Source: Candidatus Saccharimonadota bacterium
GTDB lineage: Bacteria; Patescibacteriota; Gracilibacteria; BD1-5; UBA2023
Assembly: GCA_042852035.1 (NCBI GenBank)
Contig: BAAFHK010000001.1
Span: 240,001-272,000 of the forward strand
Length of the DNA stretch: 32,000 nt
Direction of reading: 5' to 3'
Part shown: positions 1 through 32,000 of the stretch, piece by piece
Layout of the letters: each line of letters opens with the position of its first letter
Numbering within the stretch: the first letter of the stretch is position 1
Notes under the pieces: model-generated
What the model was told of the DNA's origin: nothing
The model's input: only the letters and a program-made list of their open reading frames with translations
The model's database searches: none
Position numbers and translations under genes: made by a program

Positions 1-108
1 AACCCGAATTATTTTATCGCTTGCTGGTCATCATTGAGGCATTATAGTTCCATCCACATCAAATAAAACTGCTTTTACTGAAGCGTTTCCATTTCTTTGA
101 GAATTCAT
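1..108 (-). CDS. HAD-superfamily hydrolase, N-terminal fragment (gene runs off the left edge)
   Basis: The minus-strand ORF starts at ATG 108-106 and reads MNSQRNGNASVKAVLFDVDGTIMPQGGPASDKIIRV. It has the HAD motif I DxDGT. Two in-frame TGA codons are read as Gly. Confidence 0.5.
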
Positions 109-225
109 AGGAAGTGAGTGGTTATGAGTAAATAAATTATACTAAAATATTATATAGAGTCAATATATGATTTTTTCAAATCAGTATTCGATTTTTTTAA
201 AAATTTTACTAGAATATAACTACTT

Positions 226-1452
226 ATGTTACAAATTCGCAGAAAAACACATACTGTCATGGTCGGAAATATCCCAATAGGAAGTGGGCACCCTATAGTA
301 ATCCAGTCGATGACGAATACTCCGACGCGTGATATCGAGGCAACGCTGACTCAGATTATCGAACTTGCAGATACAGGATCTGAGCTCGTACGTATCACTA
401 TCAATGATGATGCCGCAGCAGTTGCAGTCCCTGAGATTGTAAGAAAACTCCGAGAAAAGTGATACCTCACCCCGATTGTTGGAGACTTTCATTACAATGG
501 GCATATTCTCCTCGAGAAATATCCAGAAATGGCGCGGTCTATTTCGAAATACCGAGTTAATCCAGGAAATGTCGGGAAATGAAACCGCCACGATGACAAC
601 TATAAAAAATTTATCGAATGTGCAATAAAGTATAATCTTCCTGTTCGTATTGGAGTCAATGGATGATCCCTCGATGACGAACTTCTCTCAGCCAATATGG
701 AAATGAATGCAAAGCGAGAGAATCCAAAATCCTGACAGGATGTATATATAGATACTATGGTAGAATCTGGTCTTATCTCTGCAAGAAAGGCAGTTGAATG
801 GGGACTACCTGAGGATAAAATCATTATTTCAGTGAAGATGAGTGACCTTCAGTCGATGATAGGTGCCTATGAGCGAATTGCCTCACAGTGTGAGTATCCT
901 CTCCATCTCTGACTTACAGAGGCTGGTGCGGGCACGAAGGGAATTGTCTCTTCTTCCGCAGCGCTTTCTCTATTGCTTGAGCAAGGAATAGGGGATACTA
1001 TAAGAGTTTCTCTTACTCCCGAACCTGGAGCTCCACGCACTCTCGAAGTGGAAGTTTGTAGGGATATTCTTCAGTCAATGTGATTTCGTGCTTTCGAGCC
1101 TCAGATTGTGAGTTGTCCCGGATGTGGACGAACGAGTTCTGATAAATTCCAGATTCTTGCAAAATATGTAAAAGAACGAATCAGAGAAAAAATGCCGGAA
1201 TGGAAGAAGAAATACTACAATTTTGAATCCACTCATATCGCTGTTATGTGATGTATTGTGAATGGTGTTGGGGAAGCAAAAAATGCAGATATTGGTATAT
1301 TTATCCCATGAGATGCTGAAGCTCCACAGCTTCAGATCTATGTAAAGTGAGAACACTATAAATCTCTTGAGTGAAAAGATATTCTCAGTGTTGGAAGAGA
1401 GTTTATAGGGGTAATTGAGGAATATTTTGATCAAGAATTTACTCAGAAATAA
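226..1452 (+). CDS. ispG: 4-hydroxy-3-methylbut-2-en-1-yl diphosphate synthase (IspG/GcpE)
   Basis: A single 408-aa frame once TGA=Gly. By my reading it has ten in-frame TGAs. Several fall on conserved Gly: GVNG-G-SLD (664-666), HL-G-LTEAGA (910-912) and M-G-CIVNG (1249-1251). The stop is TAA 1450-1452. Confidence 0.95.
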
Positions 1453-1639
1453 GTCAACTCAAATCTTCTCCTACTTTTTTTGCTACCTCAGTACTTACTG
1501 TAGCACCAGAAAGAAAGGCTTGAATTTTTCGAAGCTCAATAGCATATTCCTTGCTTCAATCTCATCACTTTGTTACGATGGCTTGATAATCCTTTCAAGC
1601 TTGTAGATATCTATCGTATGCTATTTGACTTAATTCCAT
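1439..1639 (-). CDS. Small hypothetical protein (66 aa), weakly supported
   Basis: Minus-strand frame MELSQIAYDRYLQAGKDYQAIVTKGGDGSKEYAIELRKIQAFLSGATVSTEVAKKVGEDLSGLISE, with four TGA=Gly. It overlaps the ispG 3' end by 14 nt. No promoter is visible between it and the upstream terminator. Confidence 0.25.
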
Positions 1640-1642
1640 AAT

Positions 1643-1677
1643 AAAAATACGTTATAATATTCTTATAACGTATTTTT
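1643..1677. terminator. Bidirectional intrinsic terminator
   Basis: Perfect 15-bp inverted repeat aaaaatacgttataa / ttataacgtattttt with a 5-nt loop. A/T runs flank both sides. It lies between convergent ispG and the DUF305 gene. Confidence 0.7.
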
Positions 1678-1691: not shown

Positions 1692-2255
1692 TTAATAGTA
1701 TTTTTCACATCATAGCATAGTTGGCATTTCGCGACAATGCTCTCGCATCATCTCATCTTGAGGATCTATGCTAGTTCCGCTCGATATAGTTCCACTATTT
1801 GTATAGCCCCATTCTCTGAGCCATTTCTCCATTTGATCGATTTCATTTGCTTGTGCTGCGATGATATCAGCACCAAGTTTTTTGAGTTCGTCGTGTTTTG
1901 CTCCAGTAAGATATTTTGCCATATCGATAGCTCATTGATGATGGGGAATCATCGCAATAAGAAAGGCCTTATCAAGATCATCTCAAGTTTTTCCTTCGAG
2001 CATCTTTACCATATCATTCATTGTCATAGAGTCATGATTCATGGCTTGATTGAAATATTTATTTTCGTATTGTTTCTGGAACTCACCCCTCATTGGTCTT
2101 CCATATTTTCCTTGAGTGTTTTGAGGGTTTGGGTAATATCGACTTCCATCGATGACTCACCAAGAATAGGCACCTACAAAAAGAAGAACTACGATAAGGA
2201 TGCGTATCCATGACCAGAAGTTGATTTTTTGGAACTCTTTTTTTATATCTTCCAT
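1692..2255 (-). CDS. DUF305 family protein (ferritin-like, copper-associated), membrane-anchored
   Basis: 187 aa with an N-terminal TM (WSWIRILIVVLLFVGAY). Motifs FLIAMIPHHQGAIDMA and IIAAQANEIDQMEKWL are typical of DUF305. The standard-code stop TGA 1710-1712 is read through for 5 codons to TAA 1692-1694. Confidence 0.85.
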
Positions 2256-2342: not shown

Positions 2343-2618
2343 TTATTTGCGAGTAGCAACATCCCAGGTTCGTAGGAGTTCGTCGATGAATGCATCTACC
2401 ACTCTTGGGTCGTCGGATGAAAGTTTTTTCTTTCCGCAACAGAGGAGATGGTCTCTCATGAGTTCGCGATTCGCGGATTTGAGGAGTCCCATTGTCGCAT
2501 TAATTTGATGTGCTACATCAGCACAGTAGACATCATTTTCTGCCATTTCGATGACCTTTTCGAGAGTCCCTCTTGCTTTCTTGAGACTTGTAATAATAGC
2601 TTTTCGTTCGTGTTGCAT
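2343..2618 (-). CDS. csoR: CsoR/RcnR-family metal-sensing transcriptional repressor
   Basis: 91 aa, intact in the ORF track. It shows the DUF156 pattern, with a C...H...C ligand arrangement (VYCADV ... DHLLCCG) as in copper-type CsoR. Confidence 0.85.
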   Translation of the reverse strand: MQHERKAIITSLKKARGTLEKVIEMAENDVYCADVAHQINATMGLLKSANRELMRDHLLCCGKKKLSSDDPRVVDAFIDELLRTWDVATRK

Positions 2619-2627: not shown

Positions 2628-2888
2628 TTAGAGTTTTCCGAGCGCGCAGGAAACATAGCTTTTTGCTTTCTTTATAAAATTCTCTGCCTCAGGACTTCCG
2701 ACTTCGGGGTACCCTAGTGAGGAGAGAAGGGAAGTTATATCTTCTTTTTTTGGCCCCTTAGTATACTGCAAGGTTCCAGTTTTTATATCGATATGAACAT
2801 CTTCTGCTCATACCTTTTCGAGTGCTTTGGTGATGGTGTTTGCACACCCGCAACACTTGATGTTCATGATTTGTATCGTCTGTTTCAT
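2628..2888 (-). CDS. copZ: Heavy-metal-associated (HMA) domain protein, CopZ-like chaperone
   Basis: 86 aa: MKQTIQIMNIKCCGCANTITKALEKVGAEDVHIDIKTGTLQY... The metal-binding CxxC is near the N-terminus of a ferredoxin-like HMA fold. It contains one TGA=Gly and sits immediately upstream of csoR. Confidence 0.75.
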
Positions 2889-2891
2889 ATA

Positions 2892-2939
2892 CCATACCAT
2901 AGGGTATGGTTATATTATTCTGGTAAGAAAAAGAGTCAA
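2892..2939 (-). promoter_or_regulatory. Sigma70-like promoter with a candidate CsoR operator
   Basis: On the minus strand the promoter reads TTGACT (2939-2934), a 16-nt spacer, then TAATAT (2917-2912). It is followed by the inverted repeat CCATACC-N4-GGTATGG (2892-2909), directly abutting the copZ ATG. The palindrome resembles the TACC-N-GGTA type described for CsoR sites. Confidence 0.5.
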
Positions 2940-3016
2940 ATAAAAATATGATATTTCTTTGGGGCTTCTCTAGATTTATGATATTATTTCCTTATCCTTT
3001 ACTGATTGATTCAAAT

Positions 3017-3733
3017 ATGAACAAGAAGAGTTCCTCAGAGTTTTCAGAGGCTATTAACCAGATAAACAATGCTATACTATCTACCTTTAATAAGTACTGA
3101 AGAAGTTGTTCGGCATTTTATCAAATAGGAGAAAAAGGACTTCTACCTGAAAGGAGCATATTGTTTGTTGGTATGAATCCTGCCTGATCTAGGAAATGAT
3201 TTCAAAAATGGAAATGAATGAAAAAGGATGAATATTTCAAAAAAAATGCAATGGATATTTCGTCCTATGATAGGTACTATAAAATCTATTCTGATAATTT
3301 TGGTCGCTCAAAAAAAAGAGATTGGAATATTATCGATTTGTTAGCTCAGAGAAGTTCTAATCAATCAAAAATAGCGAATTCTATAGATTTAATTATCAAT
3401 AGGAAAAGAAAATATAGAGCTGAAAAATTAATCAATGCTCAATACAAAATATTTCTTAAGCTTATATGAATTCTTAAACCCAAGGTAATAGTAGTAATGA
3501 ATGCAAAGGCATCTGAATATATAAAATTTAAGCAGTTCAGAAACCAAAAGAAACGAATATGAAAGCAATGATTCTGGGAAATGAGACTTTGAAAAAAACA
3601 AAATCTCACCATACCAATCTTATTTACATGCCCATTATCAACATGACGACCCATGGATATATGAACGAGAGAACAACTAAAGTGGAATATTAAACGTATA
3701 TTGAAAGAAATGCAAAACTCTCCCAATAAATAG
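3017..3733 (+). CDS. Hypothetical protein, possibly uracil-DNA-glycosylase-superfamily-like
   Basis: A 238-aa frame with about ten TGA=Gly and stop TAG 3731-3733. The motif ILFVGMNPAGS resembles UDG/MUG motif A (GxNP), but I could not confirm a second motif. The functional call is weak. Confidence 0.6.
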
Positions 3734-3744: not shown

Positions 3745-3746
3745 CA

Positions 3747-5264
3747 TTATTTCTTTTTGTTCTTTCTGAAAATTTTCGATATTTTTGACTTTATTCGTAC
3801 CCCAAAAAAAGTGAAGCCCTGAGTGAGTCGATGGATCTTCTTTTCGAAAAATCCATGACTCTTTTTTTCCTCATTTCAGGACTTATTCTTCTTTTCTGAT
3901 CATTCTTTTTTCGTTGCCTTTTCAGGGCTTCCGAGATCTTCTTTGGTCCGGATGAGGGCATATTCTGTTGGTTTTTCTGGCACAGTGATATAGACATCGA
4001 CATGCCCACCATGAGCAGATTTCACCTCTTCACCCGAGAGTGAGTAGATTTTCTCGAGAGTAAAATCGACAGATTGTGTTGGGGAAATGAGTCTGAGCTT
4101 ATCTCCGACATCGATTCGATTTTTTACGATAATTCTTGCGATTTTTTCCTCCTTTGCGAGTGATGTAAGATTCTTTGGGACTTCATTGTCGGTTTGGATG
4201 ATTCCCGCCATTTCTTCCTCATGGAGTTCTTTATTTTTTTCGAAATAGATAGCTTTTTCTCCAGGGTTTCCGACCAGAAATCCTGGAGTATATCCACGAT
4301 TGGATATAGCAAATACTTCTTTCGAAAGTTTCATCGCATCGTACTCTATATTTTTCTCTACCGCATCGAGTGCTGGTCGATATGCGCGCCCGACTCAGGC
4401 GATATAATTCACCGTCTTACTTCGACCTTCTACCTTGAAGCTTACTACTCATGCATCAGCAAGTTCCTGCATATATGATAGGAGACAGATATCTCGTGAA
4501 TTCATGATGTAGGTTCCATATTCATCTTCATCGATTGGAAGCATTTCTCCTGGGCGTTCTTTTTCTTCGAGGTAAAATTCTCCCGTGAGTTCCTCATAGT
4601 CATCAGGTCGACCTGTCGAGTCATAGAGTTCCTCGGGTGAGGCGTCTTTTTTAAATACCTTATATTCCCAGCGACAACTATGGGAACAAGTTCATTGATT
4701 CGGATCACGGTGAGAGAAATAGTTCGAGAGGAGACATCGCCCAGAATACGCCATACATATTGCTCAATGGACAAAAAATTCAAGTTCGATATCTGGAACT
4801 TGCTCGTGGATTTCTTTCACTTCTTTGAGAGAGAGTTCACGAGAGAGTATTATGCGCTTCACTCCGAGGTCTCGCCAGAATTCTACTTGTGCCCAGTTAG
4901 TGTTGTTGGCTTGCACAGAGAGATGTATTTCTGCATTTGGGAAGTTTTTTCGCACGAGGTTGATGAGTCCAGGGTCGCTCATGATATAGGCATCAGGCTT
5001 CAGTGCTTCCATCTTCTCGAAGGCTTTCATAAAGGGTCCAATCTTCATATTGTGGGCGTAGATGTTTGCGGTGAAGTAGATTTTTTTCCCACGAGCATGA
5101 CAGTATTCGACCCCTTCCGCAAGAGTTTCCCAGGTGAATTGGTTTTCTCGAGCACGGAGAGAAAACATTGGCACTCAGGCGTATACAGCATCTGCTCCAT
5201 AGGCGATGGCGTATTTGAGCTTTTCGAGGTTACCAGCGGGCATGAGGAGTTCAAGTTTTTTCAT
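3747..5264 (-). CDS. Peptidase U32 family protein (YegQ/TrhP/RlhA-like)
   Basis: It starts MKKLELLMPAGNLEKLKYAIAYGADAVYAG and contains the family signature EFFVHGAICMAYSGRCLLSNYFSHRDPNQGTCSHSCRWEY. I checked every codon from 5264 to 3747. The former stop TGA 3900-3902 is followed by a 51-codon Lys-rich in-frame tail ending at TAA 3747-3749. Confidence 0.9.
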
Positions 5265-5924: not shown

Positions 5925-6770
5925 ATGAAACGCAAATTTTCTTCATGGATTATTCTATTTATTGCTGTTGGTATTACTTTTTTTAGTATAGAAGAATTCT
6001 ATCAGACTCATGAGGAAAATACGCTTCCTTCACAAAAATTGGGAGTCTCTTCTGAATTAGTTCATCCTGAACCTCTTCCAAAAAGTGCATGACAACAAGA
6101 TTGTTCCATGAATGGAACATGGTTCCAAGAAAATGAACGTGAGGGATATCAGAGTTGACTTATTGATTGTGATCATGCTGTTTCATATAACCTACTTGAT
6201 GGAACTGTAGAGTCAATAACGGGAGCTTCAACTTTTGAAAAATGATATATTTCAGATGATAACGGGACATATTTTGCATTAAACGTAAAAAGCTGTTGAT
6301 GAGCTCCATGTGAATTTAGAAAGATATCTCCAAAAACCAGATTACAAATTATGAATAATTCATGAGTATTATTTGCGAGTGATGGAATCAATATCTTTTA
6401 TAATGGCATAATTCTGAAGTGAGCTACGAAAATATCAGATTTTATTGTGCTCAATGACACGGTTTGATGAGTGATATTTCGAAATTCTGATACGGTTTGG
6501 TTCGATGGGCAAGCTATAGAATGAGCTGATTCAAGAACATTTAAAATTATTTCAGGAAGTGAAGAGGGGAGCTCTTCGGTATTTGCATCGGATAAAAAGT
6601 ATTGCTATCATCTTTTATCGTATTGAGGTGATTCTGGCGTTATTCCAGAGTGTATTCCAGAGAATTTCCGTACCCTCTGAAAGGAATATTCCACTGATGG
6701 AAAAAGTGTATTCTTGCAAAATAGTAAAATCGAAGGGGCGAACCCACTTACTTTCAGGCTTCCACAATAA
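5925..6770 (+). CDS. DKNYY-repeat family protein, N-terminally membrane-anchored
   Basis: 281 aa with 14 in-frame TGA, all checked in frame. There is an N-terminal TM (WIILFIAVGITFF). Repeated units are of the type DKKYCYHL / GKSVFLQNSKIEGANPLTFRL / VWFDGQAIEGADSRTFKII. The stop is TAA 6768-6770. The standard-code ORF 6559-6774 is in another frame. Confidence 0.8.
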
Positions 6771-6772: not shown

Positions 6773-6805
6773 AAAAAATTCCCTCCAAATCGGAGGGAAT
6801 TTTTA
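6773..6805. terminator. Bidirectional intrinsic terminator
   Basis: 10-bp stem aattccctcc / ggagggaatt with a 5-nt loop, flanked by A6 and T5 runs. It lies between convergent genes and overlaps the stop of the MBL gene. Confidence 0.75.
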
Positions 6806-7501
6806 TTCGAGTCCAAGTTTTAGATTTGCTGGAAGAGCGACATCGAGGAATTTTGGTGGAGCGAGATGAAGTGCATTCATTGTTTCAGTGAATGCTTCGA
6901 GCGTGGTCTCAGTTCGAATACGAGTATTGTATTGTTTCTCTTCGCCAATTGTTGACATCATATGCCCTGCATAATCGTGTCCTGGATAGACCTTTGTATC
7001 ATCAGGGAGTGTGTACATTTTGTCTTTGATTGAGTGGTACATCTTCTCGGGAGATCCTTGTTGGAAGTCAGTACGTCCCGTCTTTCGGATGAAGAGCACA
7101 TCCCCAGAAAAAAGCATATCTCCGATAACAAATGAGGTGCATCCATCCGTATGACCTGGAGTTGAGAGGGCTTTTATTTCTATATTCCCGACCGTAAGGA
7201 CTTCTCCATCATGAAGGAGGATATCAGGTTTTGCGACTGCAGCACCTTCTCCAAGGGCAATCTTGGCTCCTGTTTTCTCCCGGAGTACCCCACTTCATGT
7301 GATGTGATCGGCGTGGATATGGGTATCGAGGATATAACTGAGAGTGAGTCCGAGTTCGGTGAGGAGCTTCATATCTCGTTCGACTTGTTCACGGACAGGA
7401 TCAATAATGACCGCTTCTTGGGTCTCGCTATCCGCGACGATGTAAGTGTAAGTCCAGGTCTTCTCATCGAAGAGTTGGCGGAAGATGATAGTGTTGTTCA
7501 T
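6803..7501 (-). CDS. MBL-fold hydrolase, ETHE1/Blh-type persulfide dioxygenase-like
   Basis: 232 aa with the motifs DTHIHADHITG, STPGHTDGC, FSGDVLFIRKTGRTDFQQGS and VYPGHDY. There is one TGA=Gly at 7295-7297. I checked every codon across the 7117-7295 gap. Confidence 0.85.
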
Positions 7502-7785: not shown

Positions 7786-8553
7786 TTAGAAAAAAAGTTC
7801 TTTCGAAAGCATAACGACAGCTGCCGTCATCGTGAAGTAACCAAATCCCTGAGTCAGATGTTCACTCGCGAGATATTTCTGGAGAAAAAGTCCGATAGTG
7901 AGTCCACCGACAGCAATGAATACGAGCGTCGCGAGAAATGCCGTGTCAACCTCAGGAGGAATCCTTCATGCAGCTCCTATAAGCATATTGAGTGAGATAA
8001 TGCTCATGGAGGTCGCGATAGCCTTTTTCCCTTCGAGTCACTCGAAGAACATGAGTGCTGGTACGATGAGGAATCCAACTCCAGCTCAAACGAGCCCAGT
8101 GATAAATCCAACAACTCCTCCCCTGAGTCAGGTGCGTAAAATTTTTCCATGGGTTGAATACGTATTTTTCGCACTACTTAGAGATTTTTTCTTACAGATC
8201 ATCGAGCAGCCAGAGGCAAACATGATGAAGGTGAAGAGGATGAGGAGGTAGGTGGATTTTTCGAGGATCCAGAGATGTTCTGGAAGGGTCGGGAGGATAT
8301 ATCTGCGAGTCAGGACTGTGATGATGATCGAGGGGATGGCGAAATGAAATCCTGTCTTCCATGAGATACGGTTGTGTGCGAGAAATGTCCCGATGACTGA
8401 GGTTGATCCAACGATGATCATGCTATAAAACGTCGCGAGGAGAGGATCAATATGAAATCCATATACGAGCGTAGGAATCGCGAAAATCCCTCCGCCACCT
8501 CCGACGAGTCAGATAATAATCCCGACAAGGATAAAGAGAAGAAGGGAAAACAT
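7786..8553 (-). CDS. TauE/SafE (DUF81) family sulfite/anion exporter
   Basis: 255 aa, polytopic. It starts MFSLLLFILVGIIIGLVGGGGGIFAIPTLVY and has the second-half repeat GGVVGFITGLVGAGVGFLIVPALMFF. The start codon overlaps the trx stop (TAATG at 8551-8555). The stop is TAA 7786-7788. Confidence 0.9.
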
Positions 8554-8961: not shown

Positions 8962-8989
8962 AAAAAAATCCACTAAGATTTGGATTTTT
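8962..8989 (-). terminator. Intrinsic terminator of the ATPase-Toprim gene
   Basis: 9-bp stem aaaaatcca / tggattttt with an 8-nt loop that overlaps the TAG stop. A T run follows on the minus strand. Confidence 0.7.
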
Positions 8990-10781
8990 CAGGAGGATTA
9001 CATATGAGTTTTATTTTGTCGAAAAGAGGACTAAAGTTTTTAAAGTATTCTATACCAAGAGTATCAATAATGATTCTACTAAAATGAGTTTTATCTCATT
9101 TAAATGTAATGATTTCTCATCATGGTGAGCATACTTTATTGTAGTGCAAATTATCAAAATCATCATTAATTCAATAAAACATCAGTTCAATAGGGAATAT
9201 TGTTTTGGATCAGAAATGTTGTCCAGAAGTCATATCAAAAAGTTGTCTGTTGATTTTTTGGGACTTATTTATTGGTAATAATAGAGCATAAAATCATGCA
9301 TCCTTTGCTTTATTTGATAAGCAAGTTTCAGGATTGGTATCGTGAGTTATGAAGTCAAGTCAGTTCCACTGATTATATCACTCTTCATCAAAATCAAATA
9401 AACCAATGACACAACTATTTTGAAAACAATTTGCTTTTTCGAGTGAGTATTTAACATCTTTTGCATTCTGTCATTTTGTTGGTTTTGGAATATAAAACGG
9501 CATCTTGACTCAAGGGTAAAGTTTACTCCAAGATTTTTCAAGTATTTCTTTATCAGTAAATCATTCAACAAATAATAATGGTTTTTCTTTATTGCTTAGT
9601 ATTTCCAATGTTTTATTATTCTCTTGTGTTAGTTCTCGTATTCTAATTTCCTGATTTCAAATTTTATCAAAAAATTCCTTATTGGCTATTCACAGTTCTT
9701 TATATTGTGTCTTTTGTACAGGAAGTATTCTTGGTTCATATCACTTTCGAAATACTTCATAGTAATTTGTTCATTCAGGGGCTAATGATATTGTAGTTGG
9801 TGAGTGAGTTACAACTATTACCATAATTCAATTATCTACAAAATATTGATTCAATACCTTGTAAAACATTTCAGTCAAAGATGGATTAAATGTCGCATCA
9901 AATTCATCTAGTAATAACAGCTTTATGTTATTTTTATCACGAGAATTGAGTGTTGAAAATATTAATGAAGTAATGACCTTTTCTCAATCAGATAAATCTG
10001 TTACTTCCATTCATTTTTTTTCATCAATAGTCCCATTGATAATTGGGTATATCCTTGGTTGTTCGATAATTCATGTAATTGATGTGTAGTTATCTTTAAA
10101 TCTATAGTCTATTTTAAGAAGTTTAAATAATTCATTAAGTTTCTTCCACGGGGGGAATCATAATTCATTTTGCAAGTCTGAGTCGCTTATAAGGACTCCT
10201 TGATCATATTTTTCCAATTTTAATTTAGTAAATTTATTTGCATATATAAGAAATGAATCTGCTACTATATTTGAAAAAATATCATCAGATTCCCAGATAA
10301 ACTCATCATCAATAGCTCATATTATCTCTTCTCTTTGGAGCAATCCTCCCATAAATCTACTCTCTCAAAATTTTTGAGTGAGTATCTCCTTTGCTTTTTT
10401 TGAAGATTTTTGGAAACTTTTTAATATCTGATGATTTTCATTAAGAAGGACTCAGTTTGTGTAGTGGCTCCAAACACTATTTTTATGATTTATGAAATTT
10501 TGTGGTTCCGCATTTCAGATATTGTTTATTTGCTGTATATTACTTTGAAGTGTTCGAAATTGTATATTTTTATAATTTATCGGTATGCCATCAATGTCTA
10601 TGCTTGTGGCAATATTTTTATTTGGGTCTTCGGGATATTGTCACTTAATTATTTGCATTAATTGTGATTTTCCACTTCCATTTACTCAAGAAATAATTAT
10701 TAAATTTCACTCTAAGCTTATCTCAAATCAACTTGGAAAGGATTTGTATTCTTCAAATAGTCTAATATTTAAAACTCCCAT
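8973..10781 (-). CDS. Fused ABC-type (AAA15/21-like) ATPase + Toprim/DUF4435-like nuclease; OLD-family or fused PARIS (AriA-AriB)-like defence candidate
   Basis: A 602-aa single frame of 1809 nt with many TGA=Gly. Motifs: Walker A IISGVNGSGKSQL, ABC signature-like LSDGEK, Walker B KLLLLDEFDATFNP, and H-loop VVTHSP. The C-terminal Toprim motifs are PLLFVEGFTDKEIL and GLFDFDEEG. It is the most AT-rich coding stretch in the window. Confidence 0.8.
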
Positions 10782-10852: not shown

Positions 10853-11479
10853 TTATTCTTTTACCTCACACACCCCACCCACACAATTCTGATTCTTGTG
10901 TTCTTTCATCCACTTCCGACGCACGAGCCAGCCATAGATCCGACAGCCGACACAGTATCAGGCGACAGATTCGAGCCACATAAAGGTGATACAGAGGATG
11001 CATGCAAAAAGGGTAGGATTCAGTGGTGTGACGATGAGTTCATGATTTCGGAGATTTTCAGCAGTTGTCATCCAGATTTTTCCAACGGTCTCGGCCTGTG
11101 GTCCAGCAGTAGGGGCCACATAGCCTCCGAGGATGAGTATGCAGTAGAGAGCAAATACTGAGAGGAAGAGTCCGATGCTCCATGCAAATCGTTTTTGTAC
11201 CGCACCAACCCAGATTTCTTTGCTCTTTTCGAGATTCATACGTACAAGAGATCCGAAGATGCTCCACTTTGGTCCGATGAATATCTTCATGATGAACTCG
11301 AGTATGACGATGCTCACGAGGACGAGGGGGATAGAGTATTCAGCCTTGAAGAGGACGAGGAAAAATGATGTCATCGTGAAGAGGAGCATGATGCCTGTTG
11401 AGATGCGGATTTCTCGTTCATCGACGAAACCATATTTATCGTGTTTTTCAGAGATGCCGTGAATGAAGTGTCAGTACAT
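10853..11479 (-). CDS. DUF4395 family membrane protein
   Basis: 208 aa: MYGHFIHGISEKHDKYGFVDEREIRISTGIMLLF..., with several TM segments. The C-terminal GYCVGCRIYGWL motif is reached only by reading TGA 10958-10960 as Gly. The stop is TAA 10853-10855. Confidence 0.8.
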
Positions 11480-11982: not shown

Positions 11983-12768
11983 TTAGTGATTCATTTGTCC
12001 CATGCCATTTCCTTGTCCACCACCACGACGATTTCCTGATCCTGTAGGTCCACGACCATCACCATTTCCTCAGCCTTGGGCTCCAAAGGTTTGGAGATTA
12101 TTGGACTTGAGGAGATCAGTCATTTTGTATTTGAGGGGGCCAGTGCTGTTTAGTTCGCTGGCCGTCATATAGCGAGCATAGTCGGTCGTGACAATATAAT
12201 TATTTTCTACCGCGAGACGAAGAAATGCTCGAAGGTGATTGAAACTGCCACCACCGATATTTTCGAACACTCGGCGGACATCCGTATCTTCGACGGTTTT
12301 ATATTCAGAGAGGAGATGATCTATGTCTCCAACTTCTACCATAACTCAAGCTTCGATAGCTTCTGTGAGGCTTGTATCAATCATCTTTTTCAGGGTTTCA
12401 TAGGTACCAGAGTAGCTGCCATAGTCAGTCGGACGATCGATACTACGAGCATCGAGGAGGCGTCCAACCTGTTCTGAATGTTTTTCTTCCGAACTCACGA
12501 TATTCATCACTTCGGTGAACTCGGGATATTTTGCCACCATGAGGGTGTAGATGTCTTCTGCGAGACGTTCTTCGGAATAGGCATCCTTGAGAATGTTTTC
12601 GACTATTTTTGGATCAGTAGTTTGAGGGTCGGGGGCTTGTTTTTGATTGTTTGAAGCCACTGTTTGTGTTGGAGTTTGAGTCGAACTTGGTACTTTATTT
12701 TCTATACTAGAAAGAGTACAAGAGCTCAGAATGCAAGCAGAGAGTGGGAGAATTAAGAGGGCATTCAT
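11983..12768 (-). CDS. DUF2202 (ferritin-like) lipoprotein with a Gly-rich C-terminal tail
   Basis: 261 aa. The lipobox is LPLSA-C. Motifs are EERLAEDIYTLMVAKY, SSEEKHSEQV and the diagnostic GGGSFNHLRAFLR. Two TGA=Gly join ORFs 12346-12768 and 12070-12342 and add the tail GGNGDGRGPTGSGNRRGGGQGNGMGQMNH. Confidence 0.85.
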
Positions 12769-12847: not shown

Positions 12848-13099
12848 TTATGCAATCCCCAGCTTTCCTACAAGTTCACCCTTTTCGTGCAGAGCATTGA
12901 TGCTATCGAATCCTCCGAGACACTCATCAGAGACAAATATCTGAGGAACGGTTCTCATGCCAGATTTTTTTGCTATAGCAATCATGGTATCCATGTCATG
13001 TGTGACATCTATTTCGTCATAGGTTGCACCAAGGGAGGAGAGGAGATTTTTTGCTTTGACACAATAGGGGCAATAATCTTTAGTATAGATGGTAATCAT
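12848..13099 (-). CDS. grxC: Glutaredoxin
   Basis: 83 aa, intact in the ORF track: MITIYTKDYCPYCVKAK ... TVPQIFV ... GGFD. It has the CPYC active site. Confidence 0.9.
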   Translation of the reverse strand: MITIYTKDYCPYCVKAKNLLSSLGATYDEIDVTHDMDTMIAIAKKSGMRTVPQIFVSDECLGGFDSINALHEKGELVGKLGIA

Positions 13100-19015: not shown

Positions 19016-19300
19016 CTATATTTTTGCTTTTTCAGTAGAAAATGCTGGAAGATTCTCGAGAAACTGTTCAATTTCACTTTTTTTTGTATTCTGGAGGTCA
19101 GTATAGTATTCTTCTAGAGAAATAAGCCTCGCATCGAGAAATGCTCGCTCAGAATGAGTAAGAATGACTCGAGTGATTTCCTCGAACTGCATATTATACT
19201 GGAGAAGTTTTTTCACGAGCTTTTTGCTTACTTCTCGATCGTCCGTAGTTCCGAAGAGTTCACGAAGACGAGGTGATTCTTTACGAGTGCGAGGAGGCAT
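19016..19300 (-). CDS. Hypothetical 94-aa protein
   Basis: The first in-frame ATG (19300) gives MPPRTRKESPRLRELFGTTDDREVSKKLVKKLLQYNMQFEEITRVILTHSERAFLD... The open frame extends to 19402 but only with a TTG start. I recognise no family. Confidence 0.5.
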   Translation of the reverse strand: MPPRTRKESPRLRELFGTTDDREVSKKLVKKLLQYNMQFEEITRVILTHSERAFLDARLISLEEYYTDLQNTKKSEIEQFLENLPAFSTEKAKI

Positions 19301-19966: not shown

Positions 19967-20386
19967 ATGAGAACTATTAACAAAGTTATCCTTATTGGAA
20001 ATATTACAAAAGACCCTTTCGTAAAAACAACAAGTGCTGGTCCAGATAAAAAGATTGCTACTTTTACAGTTGCAACAAATCGCTACTATAAATCTCCAAA
20101 TGGAGAGGCTCTCTCTGAGGCTGAATACACAAATTGTGTTGCATGGGGGCCACTTGCGGATCAGGTTGAGAAATTTCTTGTCAAAGGAAAACTTGTTTAT
20201 ATTGAGGGAAGACTAAAGACGAGAATTATCGATAAAGAAGATGGCACAAAGCTTCATAAGACTGAAGTGGTTGTCGGACAACTTATCTTCCTTTCTAAAC
20301 GAGAAGACTTTGCTGACAATTGAGCTGATTCTGGTCCAGTTTCTGATGATTTTGATGACTTCTCTGATCTTGATGATAAATTCTAA
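19967..20386 (+). CDS. ssb: Single-stranded DNA-binding protein
   Basis: OB-fold N-terminus MRTINKVILIGNITKDPF. Reading TGA 20321-20323 as Gly restores the expected acidic C-terminal tail ...DDFDDFSDLDDKF before TAA 20384-20386. Confidence 0.95.
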
Positions 20387-20421: not shown

Positions 20422-20727
20422 ATGACTACGAAAAAGAAAAAAGTCTGTCCAATCGATGCTGCTGGAATAAAGCAGATTGATTATAAGGATACAACTCTTC
20501 TTAAGCAATATCTTACCAAGTTTAATCGTATCGTTCCACGTTACTATTCTTGAGTATCTCTTGCGAACCAAAAAAAGCTTGCACAAGCTATAAAAAGAGC
20601 TCGATATATGGCACTTCTTCCATATGTGCTTGAGGTAAATCGCCCAAGCGAGATTTCTCTTCCATCCGCTTCTGTAACTCAATCACCAACTCCTGAGACT
20701 CTTGATGAGACAGCAGTAGCCGTCTAA
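20422..20727 (+). CDS. rpsR: 30S ribosomal protein S18
   Basis: 101 aa: ...IDYKDTTLLKQYLTKFNRIVPRYYSGVSLANQKKLAQAIKRARYMALLPY... There is one TGA=Gly. The stop is TAA 20725-20727. Confidence 0.95.
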
Positions 20728-21365: not shown

Positions 21366-24062
21366 ATGGCTTACGATCACTTACGGATAGAAAAAAAATG
21401 GCAGAAATTTTGGGAAGAAAATACCACTTTTTCGACTCCTACTATTTCTGAAAAGCCAAAAAAATATATTCTCGATATGTTTCCATATCCATCGGGGGCT
21501 GGGCTTCACGTTGGTCATCCGAAATGATATACTGCAACAGATATTGTATCTCGTTACTATCATGCAAAGTGATATAACGTTCTTCATACCATGGGTTGGG
21601 ATGCTTTTGGATTGCCCGCTGAAAACTACGCCATAAAGACGGGTACACATCCTGCTATTACTACAGCACAAAATGTCACCACTTTTCGCTCCCAGATGAA
21701 GTCTCTCGGATTCTCATATGATTGGAGTCGTGAAATAGATACAACCGATCCAGAATATTATAAATGGACTCAATGGATTTTTCTTGAACTCTTCAAGCGA
21801 TGACTTGCTTACGAACAAGATCTTCCTATTAACTATTGTCCAAGTTGTAAAACTTGACTGGCAAATGAAGAGGTTCTCGCTGATAATACCTGTGATAGAT
21901 GTGGGACTCGCGTAGAACGTCGCCCAATACGACAATGGGTACTCAAAATCACTGAGTATGCAGATAGGCTTATAGAAGATCTCGAGAGTCTTGATTGGCC
22001 AGAAGGAATCAAAGAAATGCAGAGAAATTGGATAGGGAAAAGTGAGGGATGTGAGTTTGAGATGAAAAAATCTGACGATCAAACAAAAAGTATTCGCGTC
22101 TATACAACCCGTGTAGATACAGTCTTTGGGATGACGTATGCTGTACTTGCTCCAGATCATCCAAGAGTTAGAGAATTTATTACTGAAGAACAGAGACAAA
22201 TTTGTGAAAAATATATTGAATGAGTTAAGTGAAAATCTGATCTTGATCGAACAAATGAAGGTAAAAGTAAAACGGGGGTATTTACCGGATCTTATGTGAT
22301 AAATCCTTATAATGGTGAATCAGTTCCCCTTTGGATTGCTGATTTTGTTCTTGGTCATTATTGAACGGGTGCTCTTATGGCAGTTCCTGCTCACGATGAA
22401 CGAGATAGGGAATTTGCTCATTTATATTGACTTCCTATTGTTCAAAGCGTTCAAACTTCAGTTCCATTTGATGGTTGATCCTGGAAAAAGGAATATGGAG
22501 AAGATGGTATAAGCTTGGCTCTTAATCTTCCCTCAAGCGAGTCTCGAAAAGCTCTTACTGAAAAAGCAGAAAAAGAAGGCTTCTGAGAAAAAAAAGTCAA
22601 TTATAAACTTCGTGACTGGCTCTTTTCTCGTCAGAGATATTGGGGTGAGCCAATACCACTCATCCATATTGCATGAGATGATTTTGATGCACTTCCTCGT
22701 ATTGCTGACATTTCAGAGGCAAAAGACATGAATATTGCTTATATTCTTGATAAGCGAGGGACAGATAAGCGGTGTAAAAATTGTACTTGTGGTGATGTTG
22801 GTTGTGTAAAGCTTATTATCGGTGGAAAATCCTACTCAAGAGTTTATGACGGAATCTACTCAAAGATTCTTATCGATCCAAATCTTCCTGTTACGCTTCC
22901 AGAAGTTGAAAAATATGAGCCAGCAGGAGATGGTCAATCACCGCTTGCGAATGTTCCGGATTGGGTAAATATTAAACTTGCTGATAATCTCAGTGGAAAA
23001 AGAGAAACCAATACGATGCCACAGTGGTGAGGAAGTTGTTGGTACTACCTGCGATATATGGATCCGAGAAATAAAGAGGTTCTCGCAAATAAAGAGGCTC
23101 TTGATTATTGGGGAATTGTAGACGAGTATGTGGGTGGCGCTGAACATGCTGTTCTTCATCTTCTTTATGCTCGTTTCTGGCATAAGGTTCTCTTCGATGC
23201 TTGAGTTGTTCCGAAAAATGAACCATTCCAAAAGCTTACAAATGTCTGAATGATTCTTGCCTATGCTTATGAGCGAGAAGATGGAGGCCTCGTAGCGGTT
23301 GATCTTGTTATAGAGAAAGATGGAAAATTCTATGAAAAAGAAACACAAAAAGAGGTGAAGCAAGTGGTGGCAAAGATGAGTAAATCTCTCAAAAATGTAG
23401 TCAACCCAAATGATATCGTCAATGAATATGGAGCTGATACCCTTAGACTCTATGAGATGAGTATGGCTTGATTTACCGATACGGCTCCATGGAATCCTGA
23501 GGCGATTATCTGAGTTCGAAGATTTCTTGATCGAGTTTATGCGAGTTTCACAGAGTGAAAGAATCAGGCTCGTGATGATATGAAAGCGATGAAACTCCTT
23601 CATAAAACGGTGAAGAAGGTAGGAGAAGATATTGAGGGATATAAATTCAATACTGCAATTTCAGCACTCATGATCCTCCTCAATGAATGAATCCCTTCCG
23701 ATCTCGATTTTCGAAAGGAGTGGAGAGAAAAATTTCTCATACTTCTTCATCCATTTGCACCACATATTGCTGAAGAGCTTTGGATGTTTGATCATATGGG
23801 AGAGCGACCGATTTCTATTTCCACCTTTGCATGGCCAAATTTTGATGAATTTATGCTTGTGGATGATGAAGTGACTATTGCGGTTCAGGTGAATGGAAAA
23901 CTTCGAGGCACTCTTACTTGTTTTAATGGAGTAGCACAAGAAGAAGTCTCGGCACTCGCTCATGCAGATGAAAGTATAGCAAAGTGGCTTCTTGGAAAGA
24001 TTCTCGTCAAAGAAATTTTTATTCCAAATAAAATGCTCTCAATCGTTGTACGAGACGAGTAG
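21366..24062 (+). CDS. leuS: Leucine--tRNA ligase
   Basis: 898 aa in one frame (2697 nt) with many TGA=Gly. It has the HVGH (HIGH) motif, [10 protein letters not shown] (KMSKS), and the conserved blocks [17 protein letters not shown] and [11 protein letters not shown]. The stop is TAG 24060-24062. Confidence 0.97.
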
Positions 24063-24734: not shown

Positions 24735-25184
24735 ATGACCCGTACCCGAATGAACCTGGCGGCTCTGGCCGCACTCGCATCCTGCGCCGGCAACGCGACC
24801 GCCCACGTGCGTACCAAGTTCGACGTCGACACCGATCCCAAGAAGGGCATCTGCGCCATCAGCGATGGCACCGACGGCGCGATCGGCGGCGGCACCGGCG
24901 TGGTCAGCACCGAAGGCGGCGAGAACAGCAATGGCACCGGCGTGGTGAACCAGGCTGGCACCGACGGCAGCGCGATCGACGGCAACCAGCAGCAGATGCA
25001 GCAGGCCGGCGCCGCGAGCACCCAGGAAGGCGATGGCCGCACGTACGACGCCAGCGCGCAGCAGCAGGCCGATGTGAGCCGCGAAGGCGATGGCAACCAG
25101 CAGCAGGCCGAGATCCCGGTGGACCGTTCCGACACCCAGCAGGGCTGATGTCGAGGTGAAGGCAGGAGTGTGGTGGAAAGATAA
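24735..25184 (+). CDS. Compositionally foreign lipoprotein, low-complexity G/T/D/Q-rich (standard-code end 25148; code 25 end 25184)
   Basis: GAGGAG lies 6 nt upstream of the ATG. The signal peptide plus lipobox is MTRTRMNLAALAALAS-C. Third codon positions are almost all G/C. Internal repeats are GTGVV x2, EGDG x2 and NQQQ x2. There is no internal TGA. The terminal TGA 25146-25148 would be read as Gly here, adding GCRGEGRSVVER before TAA 25182-25184. The overlapping ORFs in other frames and strands look like typical high-GC shadows. Confidence 0.6.
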
Positions 25185-27269: not shown

Positions 27270-28148
27270 ATGACTGGAGTAACACTTTTTTGGCTTCTTG
27301 TAGTCATCGCCGTAATGATCCCGATGTTTATCAGAAAGATAAATCAGGGTGAAGTATGACTTCGTGAATTTCTCGGTAAGTATACTGATACGGTAGGTCC
27401 GGGTATATTCTTTCTTATTCCAGGCATCCAATCAGTGAGAAAGGTTGATATTCGTGAACAAGTAGTGACTGTGCCAGAGCAGCAAATTATTACAAAGGAT
27501 AATGTAGGAATGGCGGTTGATGGAGTTATCTATGTTCAAATTACGGATCCATATCAGGCAACCTATGATATTAATAATGTTTTCATGGCTGTTGTGAATC
27601 TTGCACAGACGAATCTCCGAAGCGTACTTGGTACAATGACTTTGGATGAAACTCTCTCAAATCGTGAAATTATTAATGGAAAGCTTCTTGAGTCCCTTGA
27701 TCGTGAGACTGGAAAATGGGGAATAAAAGTACTTCGCGTTGAAATTAAGCGCCTCGATCCACCAGATGATATTCAGAACTCGATGAGTAAACAGATGAAA
27801 GCTGAGCGAGAAAAACGCGCTCAAATACTTGAAGCTGAAGGATATAAGCAATCTCTTATTACAAAAAGTGAATGAGATAAGCAATCGCAGATTCTCCAGG
27901 CAGAATGAGAAAAGGAAGCCCAACTTCTCCGTGCACAATGAGAGGCGAGCGCTATGGTAGCGGTTGCTGAGGCAAAGGCAAAATCTCTTGAACTCGAGGC
28001 GAATGCTGCCGTATCTTACTTTAAGTGAGCTGCTATAACAAAAGAACAGCTCAAAGTTATCGAAGGTGCTCTTGGTCAAAATACAAAATATATTCTTGAT
28101 AGTGATATTCTTGCTTGAGTCTCAAAGATTTTCTGAGCCGCAAAATAA
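27270..28148 (+). CDS. SPFH/band-7 (stomatin/HflK/C-like) protein
   Basis: 292 aa with an N-terminal TM, and ...VDIREQVVTVPEQQIITKDNVGMAVDGVIYVQI...RLDPPDDIQNSMSKQMKAEREKRAQILEAEG... It contains several TGA=Gly. The stop is TAA 28146-28148. Confidence 0.9.
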
Positions 28149-28164: not shown

Positions 28165-28578
28165 ATGGAACTCCTTTATTCCTGGTTTGCTATAGCTGCC
28201 CTTTTTCTTATTATTGAGCTTATAACATCGACATTTTACGGACTTTCGTTATCGTTTGCTGCTGGTGTAACGGCTCTTTATATACTTGTTTCGCATGAGT
28301 CTGCTTTTTCTCTGAATCAGGCCTGAATTTTTGTAGTAGCAAGTGCGATTTTTGCTTATATACTTCCAAGGATGCTTATATCTAAAGCTCCTGATGTTCC
28401 TCAAGGAACAGATAAATATGTTGGAGAGAAGCGAACAGTGAAAAAAGTTGGTTGAGACTTAAAAATTTCTCTTGATGGAGTTGATTATCTTGTCGAATCA
28501 GATGATGAAATCAATTCTTGAGATAAAGTCGAAGTACTCTGACATAAGGGTGCAAGCATGAAAGTTAAAAAGATCTAA
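28165..28578 (+). CDS. NfeD-family membrane protein
   Basis: 137 aa with two or three N-terminal TM segments and a C-terminal OB-like segment (GEKRTVKKVGGDLKISLDGVDYLVESDDEINSGDKVEVLG). This is the classical partner position after an SPFH gene. Confidence 0.8.
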
Positions 28579-29276
28579 TGAAAAAGATTCAAGAGAGGCA
28601 GATTCAAATCCTCAAGCACATTATCGAAGAATATATCAGAACTGGAGAAATAACTGGCTCAAAATCTCTTTTGGCAAAACATGATCTCCAGGTATCGAGT
28701 GCAACAGTCCGAAATGATATGGCCTCACTTGAAAAAATGGGGCTATTGTTTCAACCCTATAACAGTGCAGGGAGGCTCCCGACTACCCGAGGATTGAGAG
28801 TTTTTGTTGATTATCTTATAGAGGCTATGCCAGGGGTATTTATCGAAGCTGAAGAATACCATCGTCGACAAAGTGAAAATAATCGTATCGATGATACACT
28901 CTATGAACTTGTAGCTCGTCTTACTAAAACAACAGGAGAAATTACTTTTGCTTGCATTCCTTCGATTGGCACGTCGTACTATCTTGGTCTGTCGAATTAT
29001 CTCGAAAGGCATCGATGAATTCTTGGCGAAGAAATGTATCAGGTTATCAAATGCCTTGAAAATAAACATGAATTTATTTCTCTTCTTGAAGATCTTGATA
29101 TTACTTCGAGAGTTTCAGCGTTCATCGGAGAGGAAAATATTATCCCCGAGCTCGAAAGTTCGACAATGATAGTGAAAAAAATAGAAATTAATGGATACGA
29201 ATGATACCTTGGCATACTCGGATCAACCATGATGGATTACGCTTTTAATATAACAGCACTCAGGCAGATTTTATAA
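28578..29276 (+). CDS. hrcA: HrcA-like heat-inducible repressor (short form, 232 aa)
   Basis: MKKIQERQIQILKHIIEEYIRTGEITGSKSLLAKHDLQVSSATVRNDMASLEKMGLLFQPYNSAGRLPTTRGLRVF. The start overlaps the nfeD stop (TAATG). Two TGA=Gly. The stop is TAA 29274-29276. Confidence 0.8.
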
Positions 29277-29376
29277 TCTAAAATAAAAATTTGCATTTTG
29301 TAAATATTTATTATTATACATCTAATATATAAAAACACAACTTTACACATTGGTTGAGAGTTTTTAAGTCTATTAG

Positions 29377-30894
29377 ATGAAGATAACTTATCGAATTCTA
29401 TTTTTTGTTATAAGTAGCTTTTGTGCAATGCAATTTTGTATTGCTCATCCTCTTGATGTTTCGAATACGACACTTAGTATTTATGATGATTCTATTATTG
29501 GGGTAACCTATATTCATCCTGTTGAACTCGATAGGATACTGGTTGCTAGTTGAGGCATAGAGCCTGCAGAGATTTCTGTAGATATGTATTACACATTGAC
29601 GGGCGTTTTGACTGCGTATCTTGGTGAGTCACTTGAAGTAGAAGTATGAGGTATAAAATGTAGTATTGGCGAGTATAGTTTTCGAGAAAATCTCATGATT
29701 GATGAAATATATTCCTGATGATTTCCGATTTCGTATGTGTTTCGTTGCGGAAAAAAAGTACTCGATCCACGAATTACAATAAATTTTATGACTGAAGTTC
29801 CACTTCAGACGAATAAACTCTATATTTATCAAAAAAAGGGAACTGAGATGGTCCGTACAGACTATAAAGTTCTTAATGCTCAGAAAAAGAGCCACTCTCT
29901 CACTTTTGCTAGAGATTTGCAGAGTGAAAAAGTGTTTGATACGGATAATGATTGACTTACTGATGAAGATGAGCTTTTGTATCGAACGGATCCAAGTCGT
30001 TCAGATACTGATAATGACGGATATGCTGACGGACTTGAGATAGAAAAGTCCTGGAATCCGCTTTCCCAAGAACTCTCTCCGGGACAGTATCCTTATGAAA
30101 AAACAGAGGAACCAAGAGAAATTCCTCTCTCGTCTCAAGAGAGTTTTCATCCACAAAATAATAATCTTCTCCAAGATAGTGGTGTCTGGTGATCGGAATT
30201 ATTTCATGAAGTACTGAGAAAGATTCGAATCTATATTGATGATGGAGAGAGTCCAATTTCTATTTTCCTTCTCTTAGTTTCTGTTGTGATTCTTTGATTC
30301 TTTCATGCCCTTGGACCATGACATTCCAAATGAGTATTGGTATCGCAAATTATCAATGAAGATATGAGCTATATTCGTAGTATATTTTACTGTTGAGTTT
30401 TTACTTTTGTACACCTTTTGGATATCGTAATTGTCGTTATACTCTCAAAATTCCTTTTTTCTTATATTGATTCGAGTGTATACCTTTCATATATTGCTCG
30501 CTTGAGTACGGTACTTATTTTCTGAATTTCATTCTATTTGCTCTATCGTTCTGTCTCGAAATATTTTGTGAAAAATAGAAATTTATGAATAAATAACTCC
30601 ACCCACCAGAAGGGCTCTATATTTCTTGCTATAATTACTGGTCTCACTCCATGCGCTTTTTGATGGAGTATTTTTCTTATGCTCTTTGCTCTCAAAAAAA
30701 TTAATCTAGCACTCCCAATCCTTTCTGCTCTTGGTTTAGGTATTTTTCTCTGTCTCCTGAGTATTGCTACAGTAACCTGGTATTCGAGATCAAAAATATA
30801 TAGTTTCTCTCCAAAAATTTCTCAGATATCACCAATTATTTCTTCCGTATTTCTCTTATTCATTGGATCAGGCCTTTTACTACAAAATTTTTAA
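29377..30894 (+). CDS. NicO/RcnA-like (COG2215-type) metal transporter fused to an N-terminal extracytoplasmic domain with TSP3-like Ca-binding repeats
   Basis: 505 aa in one frame. It has a signal/TM N-terminus. The repeats are DTDNDGLTDEDELLYRTDPSRSDTDNDGYADGLE. A polytopic C-terminal half follows, carrying the motif GFFHALGPGHSKG. Confidence 0.75.
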
Positions 30895-30903
30895 TTTTTT
30901 TCT

Positions 30904-32000
30904 ATGAAAAAATTTCTCTCCCTTCTTCTTGTTCTCATTGTTTTAGTGTATAATACTTTTTTTATCACTTCGGCACTTCCGACAAACAATCTTTCATCAC
31001 CTTGGACGAGAGAAAAAGCAGAGCATCTTGCAAAGGCGGTCCTCTTTTCTGCAGATGCCAGGATGATAGATGATCTTTATAGTGCAGGAAGCGCAGCGCG
31101 TGCGGTCGATATTCTTTTCCCAAGTAGAGAGGGTCCTGATAGGACAGAATTTAAAAATTATCTCACTGCCTATACCTCTTCTGGATTTAATTGGGCGGAT
31201 GCAAACCACACAACAAGACTTTATCAGATTGTCTACGGAGCAGATCCCTATGAAGCGAAAAGAAAGCTTTTTTCACTATTCGAAGATATTTTTTCAGTGA
31301 ATAATGATAGCGGAAAAGATATAACTTTTAAAGATATTTCTGACTTACATACGCTCATATATGATAATATGTTTGGAGATTATCAGCTTCTAGTAAAAAA
31401 AGTTCTTTATAATAACTGATGAAGAGGGGATTACGCACTTTGAGCTTTTTTGGACCTTTTTAATCAAAATGACCCAGCCAAACCAAATGAGAACTACGCT
31501 CGTGAATTATTGCAGCTTTTTCTTATGGGGGAATATAAACCTCATGAATCAAAAGACAATGGTGATGTAAGGAATTACGAAGAATCTGATGTTCTGGCTC
31601 TTGCAAAGATACTTACTGGTCTCCGTTCTGTTCCTACAAGTCATGTTCTTTATTTTGATTCCACAAATCATTATGTTGCAAATCAGATTTCATTTTTAAC
31701 AGGTTCGATGTCTGAAACATTTCCATATTATAATACCTCTTCATGATTAATTGATCCAGTTAGTATTGTTGCTCCAGTAAATGCAAATAATTGACTTACA
31801 GATAATGTGATTGAGTATATTTTTGCTAAAAGATCAGATGCTATTGCTCTCTTTCTCGCTGATAGAATTGTACGATTTTATATTGAAGACAAGCCAAGCC
31901 GTGATAAGTTAGATTATGTGGCAGCGATTATTAAATCAAATAATTTTGATATCTATAATTCAGTAAAATCGATACTCACACTCGATATGATGTATTCAGA
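30904..32000 (+). CDS. DUF1800 family protein (3'-truncated by the window edge)
   Basis: It has a signal-like N-terminus, then ...NENYARELLQLFLMGEYKP... and DVLALAKILTGL, typical of DUF1800. ORFs 30904-31419 and 31450-31746 are joined by TGA=Gly. Confidence 0.85.

Follow-up and report, generated by a model that had tools for sequence, protein, structure and literature searches.

NCBI lists as table 25, named after Candidate Division SR1 and the Gracilibacteria, a genetic code in which TGA stands for glycine (Campbell et al. 2013; Rinke et al. 2013; both cited in PMC8629427), TAA and TAG are the sole terminators and TGG alone specifies tryptophan. Proteomics of a BD1-5 bacterium has shown UGA to be read as glycine, with 97 unique peptides for glycine versus 3 for tryptophan (Hanke et al. 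2014, PMC4032931). A tRNA-Gly(UCA) has been reported for the recoded clade (PMC8629427), and in all BD1-5 genomes available in 2019 prfB was missing and prfA present (PMC6851277). We analysed a 32-kb stretch of contig BAAFHK010000001.1 (positions 240,001 to 272,000; referred to as the window; G+C content (GC) 38.5%) with respect to its genetic code. The window is almost certainly chromosomal DNA from an uncultivated bacterium that uses NCBI genetic code 25 and belongs to the Gracilibacteria branch (BD1-5, currently named Candidatus Altimarinota) within the Patescibacteria/Candidate Phyla Radiation. It shares with table 25 the sense reading of TGA as glycine, the two terminators, TGG as the only tryptophan codon and the Gracilibacteria-type lineage, and nothing in the code of the window detectably differs from it.

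Two other codes are close enough to be considered. In the Absconditabacteria (SR1) a Codetta screen found CGA/CGG to specify tryptophan in addition to UGA for glycine (Shulgina and Eddy 2021, PMC8629427); this lineage is sister to that of the window and has a similarly moderately low GC. Translation table 4 (Mycoplasma/Spiroplasma and some endosymbionts) likewise turns UGA from a stop into a sense codon, and loss of release factor 2 has been proposed as the way to either reassignment, but the amino acid in the window is glycine and not tryptophan.

TGA as a sense codon

The initial annotation had proposed that TGA is a sense codon for glycine throughout the window, and that re-calling of the genes with and without TGA as a stop would reveal this. 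Under table 11 the window does not contain a single open reading frame (ORF) of at least 300 aa. When TGA alone is taken as sense, 15 such ORFs appear, the longest comprising 905 aa, whereas taking TAA or TAG as sense yields none. Since only the sense reading of TGA gives rise to long ORFs, the effect can be attributed to TGA specifically and is far beyond chance.

When only TAA and TAG are counted as stops, the gene map comprises 34 genes, which cover 83% of the window and contain 8,900 codons. In-frame TGA codons number 191 and are spread over 29 of the 34 genes; in-frame TAA or TAG does not occur. The TGAs make up about 28% of the glycine codons of the window. The 33 complete genes terminate with TAA (26 genes) or TAG (7 genes) and never with TGA, in agreement with the gene ends that had been predicted. 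LeuS and IspG can be aligned with the corresponding Thermus proteins right up to the C-terminal residues of the latter. Pfam domains run uninterrupted across the TGA codons; the GcpE domain of IspG, for example, extends from residue 10 to residue 390 and spans all ten TGAs of the gene. For most genes the Pfam matches are above the gathering score, and only the NfeD-like protein, the membrane protein with the TSP3-like repeat and the ATPase with similarity to SMC_N/AAA_21 are below it. As had been anticipated, the default bacterial code fragments nearly every gene of the window.

Two protein ends are reached solely by reading through TGA. The conserved acidic tail of SSB (...EDFDDFSDLDDKF) lies beyond the TGA at 20321. 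This tail is kept in L001, a relative's syntenic contig whose DNA is about 77% identical to that of the window and in which ssb has GGN and no TGA. Likewise, the C-x-x-C motif of the DUF4395 protein lies beyond a TGA at 10958 (position read from the sequence).

Could the window nevertheless use the standard code (table 11), the TGAs resulting from pseudogenes, from mistakes in sequencing or assembly, from selenocysteine or from programmed read-through? Nothing speaks for this explanation beyond TGA normally being a stop. It would have to account for the number of in-frame TGAs next to a complete lack of in-frame TAA and TAG, for domains that are intact across them and for their location at glycine positions instead of cysteine or selenocysteine positions (see below). 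Furthermore, a Logan contig of 3.5 kb (run DRR350542; L002) is 100% identical to the window from 18926 to 22499, a region that covers the TGA-containing genes ssb, rpsR and leuS; an assembly artefact is ruled out by this independent assembly. The ORF signature of the window was also found in 16 fetched loci, namely those of 15 relatives and L002, and was missing from the other 66 loci. The abundance of TGAs, their placement at glycines, their conservation and the matching independent assembly together exclude pseudogenes, sequencing errors, selenocysteine and read-through, and we give the standard code next to no credence.

The amino acid specified by TGA

For the comparison with proteins from standard-code organisms TGA was kept as X in the translations, so that no amino acid was assumed. 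IspG was aligned with the Thermus protein 4s38, where glycine is found opposite nine of ten TGAs. The corresponding fractions are 5/8 aligned TGAs for Obg (E. coli ObgE), 9/17 for LeuS (Thermus 1h3n), 5/6 for YvcK (B. halodurans 2hzb) and 4/5 aligned TGAs for the U32-family protein. For the last one a sequence search against PDB gave no match, and the TrhP of the annotated E. coli genome served as reference. Pooled over the five proteins, glycine is opposite TGA at 32 of 46 positions and tryptophan at none (binomial P = 6e-25 for a glycine background of 8%).

The individual motifs at which glycine had been predicted from the sequence fit these alignments. In ispG the in-frame TGAs at 664-666, 910-912 and 1249-1251 are opposite the glycines set off by hyphens in GANW-G-SLD, HL-G-LTEAG and M-G-CVVNG of 4s38. 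In the same way, the TGAs in GK-x-GDG and YG-x-DGG of Obg, in FVH-x-A and NQ-x-TC of the U32-family protein and in TI-x-GGAG of YvcK are opposite glycines of ObgE, TrhP and 2hzb, respectively. In the ATPase encoded at 8973-10781 the motif IIIS-x-VNGSGKS carries x at the first glycine of the Walker A motif, as judged against the consensus GxxxxGK[ST] instead of a reference alignment.

For leuS we also compiled a codon table in the manner of Codetta, using 66 LeuS sequences whose loci are uninterrupted under table 11 and counting columns with at least 60% consensus as conserved. Eleven TGAs fall into conserved columns: seven of these are glycine columns, the remaining four have V, D, A and P as consensus, and none is a tryptophan column. 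By comparison, TGG is found in tryptophan columns in 19 of 19 cases, CGA in arginine columns in 5 of 5, and no other codon deviates systematically.

A further comparison used the codons of ten genes shared with L001, paired without assuming any translation. Opposite the TGAs of the window L001 has TGA in 25 cases, GGN in 26 and some other codon in 11, but TGG in none. In the reverse direction, TGA in L001 is paired with GGN in the window 20 times. TGG is paired with TGG in 35 of 36 cases. In a MAFFT alignment of leuS from 15 recoded relatives 54% of the cells opposite a TGA of the window contain GGN and 17% TGA (71% together). TGA is interchangeable in evolution with GGN, not with TGG. Regarding composition, glycine accounts for 7.6% of the residues if TGA is glycine and for 5.5% without TGA.

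From these data genetic code 4, in which TGA specifies tryptophan as in the Mycoplasmatales/Entomoplasmatales and some insect endosymbionts, can be judged. TGA is clearly a sense codon, as this code demands, the GC of the window is lowish, and at least one automated pipeline translated the LeuS of the closest relative (P0001, Logan SRR27149815) with TGA as W. The reference alignments, the table of LeuS columns and the codon pairing, which never place tryptophan or TGG opposite TGA, refute it. Code 4 would moreover raise tryptophan to 3.2% of the residues, compared with 1.0% from TGG alone, and the relatives of the window are Gracilibacteria, not Mollicutes. We therefore consider it very improbable.

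CGA and CGG codons

As the lineage is sister to the Absconditabacteria, and as CGG has been predicted to specify tryptophan in some Gracilibacteria (PMC8629427), the code of the window could be an extended one, with UGA for glycine and additionally CGA and/or CGG changed from arginine to tryptophan. The rarity of CGG, with 12 codons in the window, would agree with this. CGA, in contrast, is common: it occurs 106 times among the 8,900 codons, which corresponds to about 119 per 10,000 as compared with less than 37 per 10,000 in the Absconditabacteria (PMC8629427). It is paired with CGT, CGC, AGA or CGA in L001 and falls into arginine columns of LeuS, as stated above. CGG is paired with CGA, CGT, AAA and AAT in one direction of the comparison between the window and L001 and with CGT, CGC, AGA, AGG and TGA in the other, and never with TGG. 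None of the CGG codons of the window is situated in a strongly conserved column; those aligned pair with arginine or lysine codons, and their contexts are arginine-like, e.g., LVR[R]KW and VL[R]EK. By these comparisons CGA retains its arginine meaning, and arginine also fits the few CGG codons. The arginine-like behaviour of CGA together with the pairing of CGG with arginine and lysine codons argues for the plain code 25 and against the variant with CGA/CGG as tryptophan, which we regard as unlikely.

Decoding of UGA

In the window UGA is an ordinary glycine codon, and translation terminates at UAA and UAG only. In the mechanism that we propose, UGA would be decoded by a dedicated tRNA-Gly with the anticodon UCA, which as the decoder of code 25 is defined by this anticodon and by the glycine identity elements G1:C72, C2:G71, G3:C70 and U73. 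Release factor 2 (prfB) would have been lost, with release factor 1 serving both UAA and UAG. The tRNA and the release factors are adopted here from the literature on the clade.

ARAGORN detected no tRNA genes in the window, in L001 or in L002. On the loci of 14 recoded relatives it found no tRNA(UCA), and the only tRNA genes were those for tRNA-Cys and tRNA-Lys in a single locus (L046). A search of the whole window against Rfam at gathering thresholds gave no match.

Several points weigh against the assignment of plain code 25. First, 14 of the 46 aligned TGAs face residues other than glycine (A, E, D, N, V, P, F, R). Second, three TGAs of leuS are situated in columns that standard-code bacteria keep as valine (91%), proline (95%) and alanine (67%). 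In the recoded relatives the valine and alanine columns contain mostly GGN or TGA, and the proline column contains a mix of GGN, GCN and GAT; we read these TGAs as probable lineage-specific substitutions and not as another meaning of the codon. Third, with so few CGG codons the meaning of CGG is weakly determined. Fourth, no release-factor gene was found in the 32-kb window (Pfam) or in the fetched flanks of relatives, so that, together with the lack of tRNA genes, these loci give no direct view of the decoding machinery of the genome.

Origin of the window

The 120 best LeuS matches are 55-88% identical to LeuS of the window, and the named ones among them are listed as Candidatus Gracilibacteria bacterium, Patescibacteria group bacterium, Candidatus Absconditicoccus praedator and Candidatus Altimarinota bacterium, the last being the current NCBI name (taxid 363464). 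The best database matches, with 86-88% identity, come from Logan assemblies. Among the GTDB species representatives the top LeuS identity is 76%, with Gracilibacteria/Patescibacteria metagenome-assembled genomes (MAGs); the query in this case was the LeuS of the closest relative, which is itself 86% identical to that of the window. By its best LeuS matches the window is placed in the Gracilibacteria/Absconditabacteria. The organism is not a GTDB species representative and appears to be an unsampled relative at the species or genus level. The Gracilibacteria-type lineage suggested by the initial annotation is borne out by the named relatives, Candidatus Gracilibacteria/Altimarinota and Patescibacteria-group MAGs, which have the same ORF signature.

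Recoded phages exist, and the ATPase gene at 8973-10781 is defence-like and has an atypical GC. Hence the window might stem from a recoded phage or another mobile element and not from a cellular chromosome. Its housekeeping genes (obg, rpmG, rpsF-ssb-rpsR, leuS, yvcK, hrcA, ispG) are in conserved chromosomal order, the same order is kept on contigs of relatives of up to 712 kb, and genes for phage structure or replication were not encountered in the window. A recoded phage is excluded by this housekeeping content and by the conserved synteny, and the probability of an origin from a mobile element is negligible.

Gene content of the window

The genes of the window are given below with coordinates, strand, product, number of in-frame TGAs, stop codon and, where applicable, the Pfam family with its E-value.

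226..1452 (+), ispG (GcpE), 408 aa; 10 TGA, TAA; GcpE 1.9e-103
1692..2255 (-), DUF305 protein; 4 TGA, TAA; DUF305 9.1e-32
2343..2618 (-), CsoR-like metal-sensing repressor; 0 TGA, TAA; Trns_repr_metal 3.3e-16
2628..2900 (-), HMA (CopZ-like) domain protein; 1 TGA, TAA; HMA 2.8e-06
2948..3733 (+), ORF without family match, GC 0.30; 10 TGA (67% of glycine codons), TAG
3747..5264 (-), U32-family protein (TrhP-like); 7 TGA, TAA; Peptidase_U32 1.3e-81
5925..6770 (+), DKNYY-family protein; 12 TGA, TAA; DKNYY 9.7e-13
6803..7501 (-), metallo-beta-lactamase-fold protein; 1 TGA, TAA; Lactamase_B 2.2e-19
7786..8553 (-), TauE/SafE permease; 5 TGA, TAA; TauE 3e-27
8973..10781 (-), ABC/OLD-like ATPase, 602 aa; 28 TGA, TAG; SMC_N and AAA_21 (both sub-gathering)
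10853..11479 (-), DUF4395 protein; 2 TGA (one immediately preceding the C-terminal CxxC), TAA; DUF4395 3.7e-19
11983..12768 (-), DUF2202 protein; 2 TGA, TAA; DUF2202 2.2e-14
12848..13099 (-), glutaredoxin; 0 TGA, TAA; Glutaredoxin 7.9e-21
13118..13462 (-), rhodanese-domain protein; 1 TGA, TAA; Rhodanese 5.3e-15
13477..13767 (-), ArsR-family regulator; 2 TGA, TAA; HTH_5 1.5e-05
13827..14687 (-), aldo/keto reductase; 3 TGA, TAA; Aldo_ket_red 6.7e-48
14733..16286 (-), lineage-specific ORF; 19 TGA, TAA; no Pfam match, syntenic homologue in L001 45% identical
16689..17207 (-), membrane protein (ORF); 2 TGA, TAG; no Pfam match
17211..18590 (-), obg, 459 aa, start by homology to L001; 10 TGA, TAA; GTP1_OBG 2.7e-53
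18740..18910 (+), rpmG (L33); 1 TGA, TAG; Ribosomal_L33 4.5e-08
19016..19300 (-), ORF without family match, 94 aa; 0 TGA, TAG; same gene in L002, syntenic 94-aa gene in L001
19660..19944 (+), rpsF (S6), protein identical in L002; 0 TGA, TAA; Ribosomal_S6
19967..20386 (+), ssb; 1 TGA (20321-20323) before the acidic tail, TAA; SSB 1.6e-27
20422..20727 (+), rpsR (S18); 1 TGA, TAA; RYYSxVSLANQ versus RYYSGVSLANQ in L001
20914..21273 (+), T4SS-pilin-like protein, 119 aa; 0 TGA, TAG; T4SS_pilin 2.2e-10
21366..24062 (+), leuS, 898 aa; 18 TGA, TAG; Pfam match
24735..25184 (+), GC-rich (about 47%) lipoprotein-like ORF, signal/lipobox-like N-terminus in the translation; 1 TGA, TAA
25359..26099 (-), ORF without family match; 13 TGA (68% of glycine codons), TAA
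26126..27124 (-), yvcK/CofD-family gene; 6 TGA, TAA; CofD 5.2e-74
27270..28148 (+), SPFH/band-7 protein, start by homology to L001; 7 TGA, TAA; Band_7 2.2e-41
28165..28578 (+), NfeD-like partner of the SPFH protein, syntenic 137-aa gene in L001; 4 TGA, TAA; NfeD 1.5e-04 (sub-gathering)
28578..29276 (+), hrcA; 2 TGA, TAA; HrcA 9e-14
29377..30894 (+), membrane protein with TSP3-like repeat; 13 TGA, TAA; TSP3_bac 3.7e-05 (sub-gathering)
30904..32000 (+), DUF1800 protein, truncated at the end of the window; 5 TGA; DUF1800 1.8e-27

Two clusters of genes related to metals and redox reactions are found on the minus strand. The first one (1692-2900) consists of the genes for the DUF305 protein, the CsoR-like repressor and the HMA (CopZ-like) protein, the second one (12848-13767) of those for glutaredoxin, the rhodanese-domain protein and the ArsR-family regulator. 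The T4SS-pilin/TrbC-like gene between rpsR and leuS (20914-21273) is at the same place in L002; in L001 an unrelated minus-strand ORF is found instead.

TGA usage in housekeeping and accessory genes

The share of TGA among the glycine codons of a gene varies more than tenfold, from 0.06 to 0.72. In conserved housekeeping genes it amounts to 0.06-0.3. Three lineage-specific genes reach 0.67-0.72, and the GC of two of them is very low (0.28 and 0.30). The highest share is that of the ATPase gene at 8973-10781, where TGA represents 72% of the glycine codons and the GC is 0.28 compared with 0.385 for the window. Its product shows weak similarity to defence ATPases of the OLD, PARIS and Gabija type: PADLOC gave weak matches to AriAB (5.6e-14), ATPase-Toprim_I-B (3.9e-12), AriA, AbiLi, GajA and PtuA, and NCBIfam a match to restrict_AAA_1 far below the cutoff. 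Judged by these matches, the gene looks like a defence gene of the OLD-family type, and it was perhaps acquired from a code-25 donor of lower GC. The other two genes, 2948-3733 (+) and 25359-26099 (-), gave no match in Pfam, PADLOC or NCBIfam, and no homologues of them were identified in L001.

Composition and weak family matches make it conceivable, though rather doubtful, that the TGA-rich genes belong to an accessory/defence pool whose circulation is limited to code-25 hosts and the mobile elements of these hosts. Such a pool would be confined to these hosts because genes so rich in TGA are untranslatable elsewhere. If this were true, TGA density could mark recent transfer within the recoded clade.

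Probable noncoding stretches and the length of LeuS

Downstream of leuS a terminator-like hairpin is located at about 24445-24510 (AAAAAACCUUC...GAAGGUUUUUUU), which is readable on both strands. A permissive Rfam search of 24000-25400 returned only sub-threshold hits to Phe_leader, RNAI and STnc370, coinciding with this hairpin. Just upstream of the ORF at 24735-25184 a stretch of 152 nt (24589-24740) is 81% identical to positions 10389-10541 of L001, which is above the identity of the flanking coding DNA. It contains TAA/TAG stops and a frame change, has no Rfam match at E <=1 and is present in only 1 of 15 relatives. This stretch is probably a noncoding leader or a small RNA.

In many relatives the LeuS calls or TGA-sense ORFs (P0002-P0090; L007, L010, L021, L024, L029) comprise 1,000-1,500 aa and contain extra Pfam domains, namely NUDIX, Ser_hydrolase, Ham1p_like and acetyltransferase. 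Either genuine fusions or insertions, or ORFs that extend into neighbouring genes, may account for this.

Implications

The UGA = glycine code found in the window is already known and has been published since 2013, table 25 having been defined for this very lineage, and the finding raises no new biological question. Its practical meaning concerns annotation, homology search and structure prediction on this contig, for which table 25 should be used, as the default bacterial code cuts nearly every gene. Public gene calls are inconsistent in this respect and provide examples of the mis-annotation that results from code 25: in L002, called under code 11, ssb is truncated at 118 aa and leuS is fragmented, and the LeuS of the closest relative was translated with tryptophan at TGA. 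For the lineage itself, the window adds a data point: a Gracilibacteria-type organism that reads UGA as glycine without the change of CGA to tryptophan and with no signal for such a change of CGG.

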